Shown here in pieces: positions 21,407 to 21,607 of a stretch of DNA of 64,000 bases. Origin of the DNA: Octopus vulgaris (Eukaryota); the NCBI GenBank assembly GCA_951406725.2, contig OX597824.1:74896001-74960000 (forward strand). Reading direction: 5' to 3'. The translations under genes and the position numbers were made by a program. Within the stretch, counting starts at the first letter, position 1. Each line of letters begins with the position of its first letter. The notes beneath the pieces were generated by a model. The model was not told the DNA's origin and made no database searches. It saw only the letters and a program-made list of their open reading frames with translations.

Positions 21407-21607
21407 TGTGACCGCGTGTGCATCGTTGGCGATTTTCTCTCTCTGTCTTCCCTTCCTTGGACCTTTCCTTTTTCTATGTTTCTGACGAAGAGCTCCGCTC
21501 GAAACGTTACATCCTCCTTCTTTCTTTACTTTCCTGAGCGTCCAATAACACTATACTTGTTCCACGTCCTCGTGTTGTGCTTTCTCTTTGTTCATGGTTG
21601 GATTAAC
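21407..21607 (+). mobile_element. ~200 bp HHR-carrying mini-element, copy 1
   Basis: tgtgacc...ttaac between (TG)n and (TA)n; HHR at 21476-21512: gttt CTGACGA a gagc tcc gctc GAAAC GTT. Confidence 0.85.

Follow-up and report, generated by a model that had tools for sequence, protein, structure and literature searches.

Hammerhead-bearing repeats of about 200 nt in the Octopus vulgaris genome as solo terminal repeats of a Penelope-like element

Three repeats of about 200 nt, each with a hammerhead motif near its centre, lie within a 64,000-nt stretch of the Octopus vulgaris genome (hereafter, the window), and they raise the question of what kind of unit they represent and why their copies have nearly the same length. 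An initial annotation described them as a SINE-like or retrozyme-like parasite of Penelope-like elements (PLEs), fixed in length and possibly with a circular RNA stage; it also considered that ragged 5′ ends extending into a long PLE would leave only a solo terminal repeat. The latter is what we observed: genome-wide, the 5′ ends are ragged, and the longer copies continue into a complete PLE open reading frame (ORF). We conclude that the three repeats are almost certainly PLE terminal repeats.

Copies 1 and 2 are on the forward strand, at positions 21407..21607 and 40485..40691, and copy 3 is on the reverse strand, at 54991..55192. By their sequence, they were assigned to solo terminal repeats (pseudo-LTR ends) of different subfamilies: copy 1 to a subfamily with U at hammerhead position 4 (U4), copy 2 to a C4 subfamily with a GUC triplet, and copy 3 to the commonest C4 subfamily. 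As had been noted, all of them begin with TGTGACC and end with (G/T)ATTAAC. The copies are 81-87% identical (85.8% for copies 1 and 3, 80.8% for 1 and 2, and 87.0% for 2 and 3; BLAST E 1e-47 to 1e-68), and a central block of 22 nt shows no difference among them. No fourth full copy was found in the 64-kb window. The host genome is of 2.8 Gb and rich in microsatellites, and TA, TG or TATG microsatellites border all three copies, in agreement with the initial annotation. Copy 1 is preceded by a (TA)n/(TG)n tract (21259..21406), which is likely the insertion target and shares a TGTG microhomology with the start of the element, and is followed by (TA)23 (21608..21653). At copy 2, the tract on the 5′ side measures just ~13 nt; on the 3′ side of this copy, TTTATATA merges into (TA)n (40692..40748, forward strand) and corresponds to the element's own repeat/5′-UTR junction, as identified from the junction sequence in ORF-bearing copies. 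Copy 3 is flanked by a (TA)n/(TACA)n tract on its 3′ side (54819..54990) and by a (TA)n/(TATG)n tract on its 5′ side (55193..55319).

The layout of the conserved block is that of a type I hammerhead in its minimal form, in which C-(U/C)-GACGA is followed by a single additional A between A9 and G10.1, a stem II with a 3-nt loop, GAAA, and C-G-U-H, without a stem III loop. In copy 1, the sequence and a motif scan located it at 21482..21508 (forward strand), with CUGACGA, the extra A, a 4-bp stem II and GAAA-C-GUU; its stem I is degraded (fewer than 3 bp in the stem test), and cleavage is predicted after position 21508. The motifs of copy 2 (40561..40587, forward strand) and copy 3 (55092..55118, reverse strand) both have CCGACGA, the extra A, a 4-bp stem II and a 4-bp stem I, and they end in GAAA-C-GUC and GAAA-C-GUU, respectively. 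Hence, the assignment of U to position 4 in one copy and C in the other two was correct. The extra A is also present as described, but its proposed special likeness to the CChMVd viroid hammerhead was rejected, given that an extra base at this place also occurs in a PLE of the anole and in the family of a second motif at 52315-52350 of the window. Among the best 150 of the 187 Rfam matches in the window there was no hammerhead family, nor any tRNA, 5S or 7SL family over the three copies, only microsatellite-driven miRNA and snoRNA matches. Single-strand folding of four 66-nt hammerhead regions gave z-scores of -0.8 to -1.4, which are not significant; stem II formed, and the minimum-energy folds paired core bases instead of forming the hammerhead. 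The unit reads as a hammerhead by its consensus motif and by its likeness to the anole PLE ribozyme tested in PMC11167929.

The genome contains 11,278 exact matches to the 24-nt core (5,607 and 5,671 on the two strands), whereas the reversed control gave none on either strand, so the core does not occur by chance. To survey the ends, we sampled exact-core matches in their order on contig C1, up to the 90th, because a similarity search yields full-length copies by construction; this sample favours intact cores, represents one contig and includes at least one duplicated pair. Position 4 was C in 67 of these copies, U in 21 and A in two, and the cleavage triplet was GUU in 63, GUC in 20 and GUA in seven. 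We numbered the 5′ starts from TGTGACC (position 0), with positive values further upstream and natural long copies as the reference. On this scale, the start lies deeper than 11 nt within the unit in 19 copies, at -11..-2 in 14, at -1..+11 in 44, at +12..+60 in two and beyond +60 in 11. In contrast to the claim of a fixed length, the length of the repeat is therefore modal, and TGTGACC is one peak of starts. The 3′ end is constant: 79 of the 90 copies stop at GGATTAAC or a one-base variant of it (of the others, eight fell outside the pattern scoring and three matched elsewhere), and beyond it TA repeats nearly always follow, often by way of TTTATATA.

The start at TGTGACC, one of two 5′ peaks, coincides with an ATGTG microhomology to the (TA)n/(TG)n target, and we rejected it as the true 5′ end in favour of an edge 7-9 nt further upstream. 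Exact-match counts fall from 4,508 at position 0 to 1,669 at +7 and 239 at +14, the second of these drops being exaggerated by mutation at a CpG. Another 80 copies that reach +7 were examined (entries 14-94, with one skipped, of the list of exact matches reaching this position): 61 end at +7..+9, ten at +10..+20, and nine continue. A TA run lies immediately upstream in 45 of the 61 copies that stop at +7..+9, and in a young, diverged subfamily two short copies end at the homologous position +6. The existence of this hard edge upholds the earlier argument that the common length does not come from random truncation. The edge sequence is TCATT or TCTTT; of these two alleles only TCATT is a good fit to what we take to be the initiator consensus, and no downstream promoter element was seen by eye. 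In nine of the 61 copies, a G stands directly before the edge; its frequency in the flanking sequence is 6% (p = 0.011 in a post hoc test), which hints only weakly at a copied cap.

Walking upstream from the repeat, we crossed a CA-rich stretch of 2-3 kb and then reached broken ORFs with reverse transcriptase (RT) and GIY-YIG motifs; a 26-nt pattern taken from this upstream extension occurs 59 times in the genome. At locus L135, a truncated repeat with its hammerhead is followed by TTTATATA, the 5′ UTR, a broken ORF and the 3′ UTR, and the repeat unit flanks the ORF on both sides in L135, L225, L230 and L231. A protein search of the genome gave at least 150 scored matches among 23,314 candidates, many of them in open frames of 800-1,000 codons; such a number of near-identical ORFs suggests a very recent burst. 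In L230 and L231, an intact ORF lies between two repeats with an identical exact hammerhead core. Counted from its first Met, the L230 ORF is 949 codons long, and it contains KGLRF, DKG at residue 354 and YIDD at 596. The linker of the intact ORF reads CSRSRCNTC at residue 817, which fits CX2-5CxxC, and its C-terminal region contains GLIYCIKCNLC...YVGQT followed by H, E and N residues, a candidate CCHH arrangement with putative histidines. Pfam matches to these ORFs stayed below the gathering thresholds (RVT_1, E 0.0006-0.0016; GIY-YIG, E 0.008-0.012); over all the ORFs scanned, the GIY-YIG E values spanned 0.002-0.012. Among 8,000 candidates scored, 319 homologues were found at E<=0.001, the best being 53-57% identical and most of those listed carrying RVT_1; two of the three homologues that were rescanned passed the GIY-YIG cut-off. 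A PDB sequence search with the ORF returned no match.

The subfamily with the intact ORF is a sister to that of the window, with the same core and with a repeat ~76% identical to copy 3. Seven of the 11 sampled copies of this sister subfamily are long and not solo. In the three subfamilies of the window, the copies fetched contained only broken or partial ORFs, and L225, which is nearer to the window copies than L230, has an open stretch of 816 codons. At L222-L224 (G000:C10:97803000-97829999), near-identical PLE units of ~6.2 kb form an array, with four cores spaced 6,159-6,191 nt apart. The 3′ UTR of these units, 2.5 kb long and CA-rich, contains open His/Thr-rich frames of more than 500 codons, which probably arise by composition. 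An RT ORF, a GIY-YIG domain, the tandem pseudo-LTR layout, inverted repeats with a tail and the minimal type I hammerhead motif were all found, and the element is one more ordinary PLE family with a known kind of minimal hammerhead. A C-terminal endonuclease together with a CX2-5CxxC linker is described for the Neptune and Nematis types (Craig et al. 2021, PMC8557442, in the part available); by this linker criterion, the parent element would be of the Neptune or Nematis type, between which the motif does not distinguish.

Short and long copies are one family by their sequences. Each window copy has a close relative with an upstream extension or an ORF: L270 for copy 1 (94% identical), the upstream repeat of the ORF-bearing L244 for copy 2 (93%) and L006 for copy 3 (98.5%). 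A tree was built from 111 units, of which 71 were labelled solo and 40 long, and the two kinds were interleaved in it; this tree is poorly resolved, with 17 of 102 inner branches strongly supported, and it includes copy 3 (as L001) but not copy 2, which the extraction pattern left out. The U4 copies, copy 1 among them, were grouped in one part of the tree, and C4 was present in all 11 sampled copies of the young subfamily. The solo copy L185 is identical to both terminal repeats of the intact L230. The proposal of a PLE parasite holds in that the unit is PLE-related and bears a minimal hammerhead motif, but a discrete, separate element is not supported.

The exact repeat/5′-UTR junction has 50 matches in the genome, and 30 of these loci were surveyed. 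Their upstream repeats start at -1..+11 in three cases, further inside in 22 and far upstream in five; none starts at +12..+170. Eight loci carry on for 547 nt or more, in the direction of the ORF or reaching into it. Six end in a tail of 51-132 nt followed by TA, and four of these six have an inverted repeat; an inverted repeat with a tail is the classic PLE structure. In the remaining 16 (L234, L237, L240, L243, L246, L247, L249-L251, L253-L258 and L260, with the junction at about position 1500 of each), a second repeat is rejoined after 192-483 nt of 5′ UTR, giving mini-elements of 600-900 nt with ends in (TA)n. Their breakpoints are mostly different; the two hammerheads are 389-687 nt apart where both cores were found, and L255 has three repeats.

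To explain the abundance of solo copies, we favour an origin by run-off, which we regard as probable, though by no means assured: reverse transcription would start at the repeat/5′-UTR junction within the element's own RNA and run off at the RNA 5′ end, giving a product of ~210 nt. In this model, transcription would begin within the upstream repeat, at the initiator-like TCATT or TCTTT found 7-9 nt on the 5′ side of TGTGACC. From the (TA)n flanks and the zinc-finger-like linker, it can be proposed that the endonuclease nicks (TA)n microsatellites. By analogy with the anole PLE experiments, RT would begin at the junction, where UAUAUA would also match the target and fix the 3′ end. Copying would halt at or just short of the RNA 5′ end, and the cDNA would be joined through TA/TG microhomology, giving the peaks at +7..+9 and 0..+3 and a tail of shorter copies; long copies would descend either from full transcripts, through their downstream repeat, or from RNA that reads through tandem arrays. 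At its central position in the unit, the hammerhead would be a passenger that sets neither end, and its cleavage would need a second copy or the protein. The run-off model accounts for the constant 3′ end, the 5′ cliff and the identity of solo copies with the parent repeat, and the near-uniform length of ~200 nt is likely due to the parent RNA beginning at that edge. Its prediction that the upstream repeats at junction loci share the solo edge was not confirmed, as only three of the 30 start at -1..+11. Contigs from sequencing runs presumed to be RNA, aligned with the young repeat and with a long copy of the window's subfamily, showed neither start or end sites nor a joint at the cleavage triplet; contigs are unable to reveal such features, and this result weighs on neither side.

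Several reports bear on these steps, in the parts of them available. The purified anole PLE protein cuts AT-rich DNA, and its RT starts at two RNA-internal sites near the pLTR-ORF junction; it needs RNA downstream of the initiation sites, while hammerhead cleavage is dispensable in vitro (PMC11167929). The hammerhead of this PLE was cleaved only when the protein was present (Frangieh et al. 2024, PMC11167929). In D. virilis, the promoter of Penelope is internal and the transcript starts inside the upstream pLTR (Schostak et al. 2008, PMC2377424). How pseudo-LTRs are regenerated in PLEs, and the role of the hammerhead, are treated as open questions in the available text of PMC2377424, PMC8557442 and PMC11167929. 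No paper on a run-off origin of solo pLTRs was found in the literature searched.

Among the alternatives, the one that survives best, although we think it rather unlikely, is a SINE-like offshoot, in which solo copies are transcribed from an internal promoter into the (TA)n tail and recopied in trans by the PLE protein; it could coexist with the run-off origin. The excess of solo over long copies in the sample (~7:1, with 77 of 90 copies starting at or inside +11) agrees with it, as do the internal promoter of the D. virilis Penelope, whose 3′ pseudo-LTR is able to drive transcription (PMC2377424, available text), and the existence of non-autonomous PLE derivatives (PMC8557442 and bioRxiv 10.64898/2026.07.22.740005, both in part). 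The core is invariant in seven subfamily representatives with flanks 68-96% identical, which suggests selection during copying, bearing in mind that most of these representatives were picked on the core itself. However, the interleaving of solo with long copies, the identity of one of them with the repeat of an intact element, and the relatives with upstream extensions (93-98.5%) that every window copy has argue against a separate lineage. Furthermore, the RNA 3′ of the initiation site that the anole protein requires, according to the available text of PMC11167929, is absent from solo copies. A SINE in the strict sense, with a Pol III promoter and a head derived from tRNA, 5S or 7SL RNA, does not fit the unit, whose alignment to the terminal repeat of the PLE extends over its entire length, and a tRNA-derived SINE was rejected.

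Somewhat less likely still is that copying was primed at the 3′ end of the full transcript and the copies were then 5′-truncated in the ordinary way, with a hot spot ~210 nt in caused by RNA structure or microhomology. PLE copies are usually 5′-truncated (PMC8969392, in the part available), the peak at 0..+3 matches the ATGTG microhomology to TA/TG targets, and the adjoining upstream 3′ UTR is of low complexity. Nevertheless, the second peak has a width of just 3 nt, with 61 of 80 copies at +7..+9, and is followed by a nearly empty zone (two of 90 copies at +12..+60), a cliff that microhomology alone does not predict, and the peak reappears at the homologous site in a subfamily with a different upstream sequence.

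It is very improbable that the unit is a retrozyme cycling through a circular RNA that is cut and rejoined at the hammerhead site. A type I hammerhead motif is present, and an origin from PLE pLTRs has been argued for animal retrozymes, which may consist largely of monomers, their monomer fractions ranging from 0 to 1 (Li et al. 2026, bioRxiv 10.64898/2026.07.22.740005, available part); by that ancestry, even a positive result would be of a known kind. Rare short tandem arrays also exist, and they are the sole retrozyme-like arrangements that we observed, with four units on C21, three on C2 and three on C25 (approximately G000:C21:8024200-8025000, G000:C2:134627100-134627720 and G000:C25:35468800-35469450). 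However, the unit ends ~100 nt on either side of the cleavage triplet, and the copies are not circularly permuted. The head-to-tail pattern gave 21 matches at 18 loci, as opposed to 11,278 cores genome-wide; in the 20 matches fetched, arrays had at most four units, and their direct junctions differed by locus, none being common to two. Neighbouring units were often only 79-92% alike, and 97-98% inside two arrays. Tandem arrays are thus not the typical form of this repeat, although a few arrays might pass a permissive two-unit definition. The arrays are as expected from insertions into the TA tail of a pre-existing copy, from template jumps and from local duplication, and not from a shared circular master. 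In the text available from Cervera and de la Pena 2020 (PMC7229834), circles are tied to canonical hammerheads in tandem repeats, and minimal motifs without a stem III loop, such as the one described here, are classed with PLEs. In addition, U4C, present in 67 of the 90 copies, is reported to reduce activity considerably in vitro, yet to be tolerated in a viroid (Perreault et al. 2011, PMC3088659, in part). The suggested circular RNA stage is therefore not supported.

We likewise give very little credence to an origin of solo copies from complete insertions whose two repeats recombined with each other: several solo pLTRs with a suggested origin by recombination or deletion are reported in Adineta vaga (PMC3846280, available part), and internal shortening was seen at 16 of the 30 junction loci, but a solo copy of this origin would keep the 5′ end of the upstream repeat, and starts at -1..+11 were found in three of 30 upstream repeats as opposed to 44 of 90 core-bearing copies, with 50 exact junction matches against thousands of solo copies.

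We compared the octopus family with the systems closest to it, as these are described in the available text of the sources. Compared with the PLEs of PMC8557442, it has a long (2-3 kb) CA-rich 3′ UTR, a great excess of solo repeats near unit length and C at hammerhead position 4 even in its youngest subfamily. PAc, a Poseidon PLE of Anolis carolinensis (PMC11167929), resembles it in the extra base after A9 (U in the printed hammerhead RNA, as read from print), in GAAACGUC without a stem III loop, in its AT-rich targets and in its copy ends, which have a fixed position close to the pLTR/ORF junction, a second site producing a tail. In contrast to the octopus element, Poseidon is described there without a linker zinc finger, the PAc ORF starts inside the hammerhead (the octopus first Met is ~450 nt downstream), and position 4 is U in PAc but mostly C in the octopus family. 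Animal non-LTR retrozymes share with it a unit of 200-400 nt, a type I hammerhead, a PLE pLTR ancestry and many dispersed monomers; their definition includes circular RNAs and tandem arrays in which every unit bears a hammerhead, whereas the octopus arrays are rare and short, with private junctions (PMC7229834; bioRxiv 10.64898/2026.07.22.740005). Non-autonomous PLE derivatives of Chlamys, such as MRC1 (PMC8557442), are also short and have their 3′ end in common with an autonomous PLE. Nonetheless, these are discrete families with their own pLTRs, whereas the octopus short copies track the autonomous subfamilies and each shortened two-repeat copy has its own breakpoint. The 2026 repeat annotation of Octopus vulgaris lists 190 PLE families, 6.83% of the genome, and 30 recently active Penelope families (PMC13282606, in the part available), and hence a family like that of the window has probably been catalogued. 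No description of its hammerhead was found in the literature searched, which does not by itself establish the family as undescribed.

If the run-off origin is correct, the 5′ edge, sharp to 3 nt on thousands of copies, predicts the start of a PLE transcript and makes internal initiation testable. The intact young subfamily offers a protein for such work, and the natural U4 and C4 subfamilies offer a comparison of ribozymes. For annotators, PLE ends of 200 nt are easily filed as unclassified SINEs. A more far-reaching reading, which we hold to be speculative and unlikely as a whole, is that the thousands of solo copies are a genome-scale record of internal initiation by a PLE, similar to "strong-stop" products, and that some of them, together with the mini-elements with two hammerheads, now propagate themselves as non-autonomous elements. 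In that case, these would be nascent retrozymes, derived from a parent that remains active, and their U4C hammerhead would have been kept by selection.

Other repeats were also observed. The second minimal hammerhead motif of the window (52315-52350, forward strand) has CUGAUGA, an extra A, a 6-bp stem II and a 5-bp stem I, and it reads GAAAC-AUU, G16.2 having likely decayed. Two relatives of it, in inverted orientation, are present in L137, and it is probably the end of another PLE family. At 31905 (reverse strand), CUGAUGA ... GAAACGUA has a loose hammerhead-like spacing that failed the stem test and is possibly a decayed motif. More diverged hammerhead-like motifs, with different stem II loops, adjoin copies of the window's repeat family in L139 (~200 nt 5′ of the core whose oriented position is 2862) and in the upstream flank of L237, which suggests that further related PLE families insert near one another. 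Finally, tandem repeats of a 184-nt unit occur at 19710-20536 (4.5 copies), 5867-6415 (~2-3 copies) and 62443-62812 (two copies) of the window; the three sites belong to one dispersed repeat family, which we take to be SINE-like.
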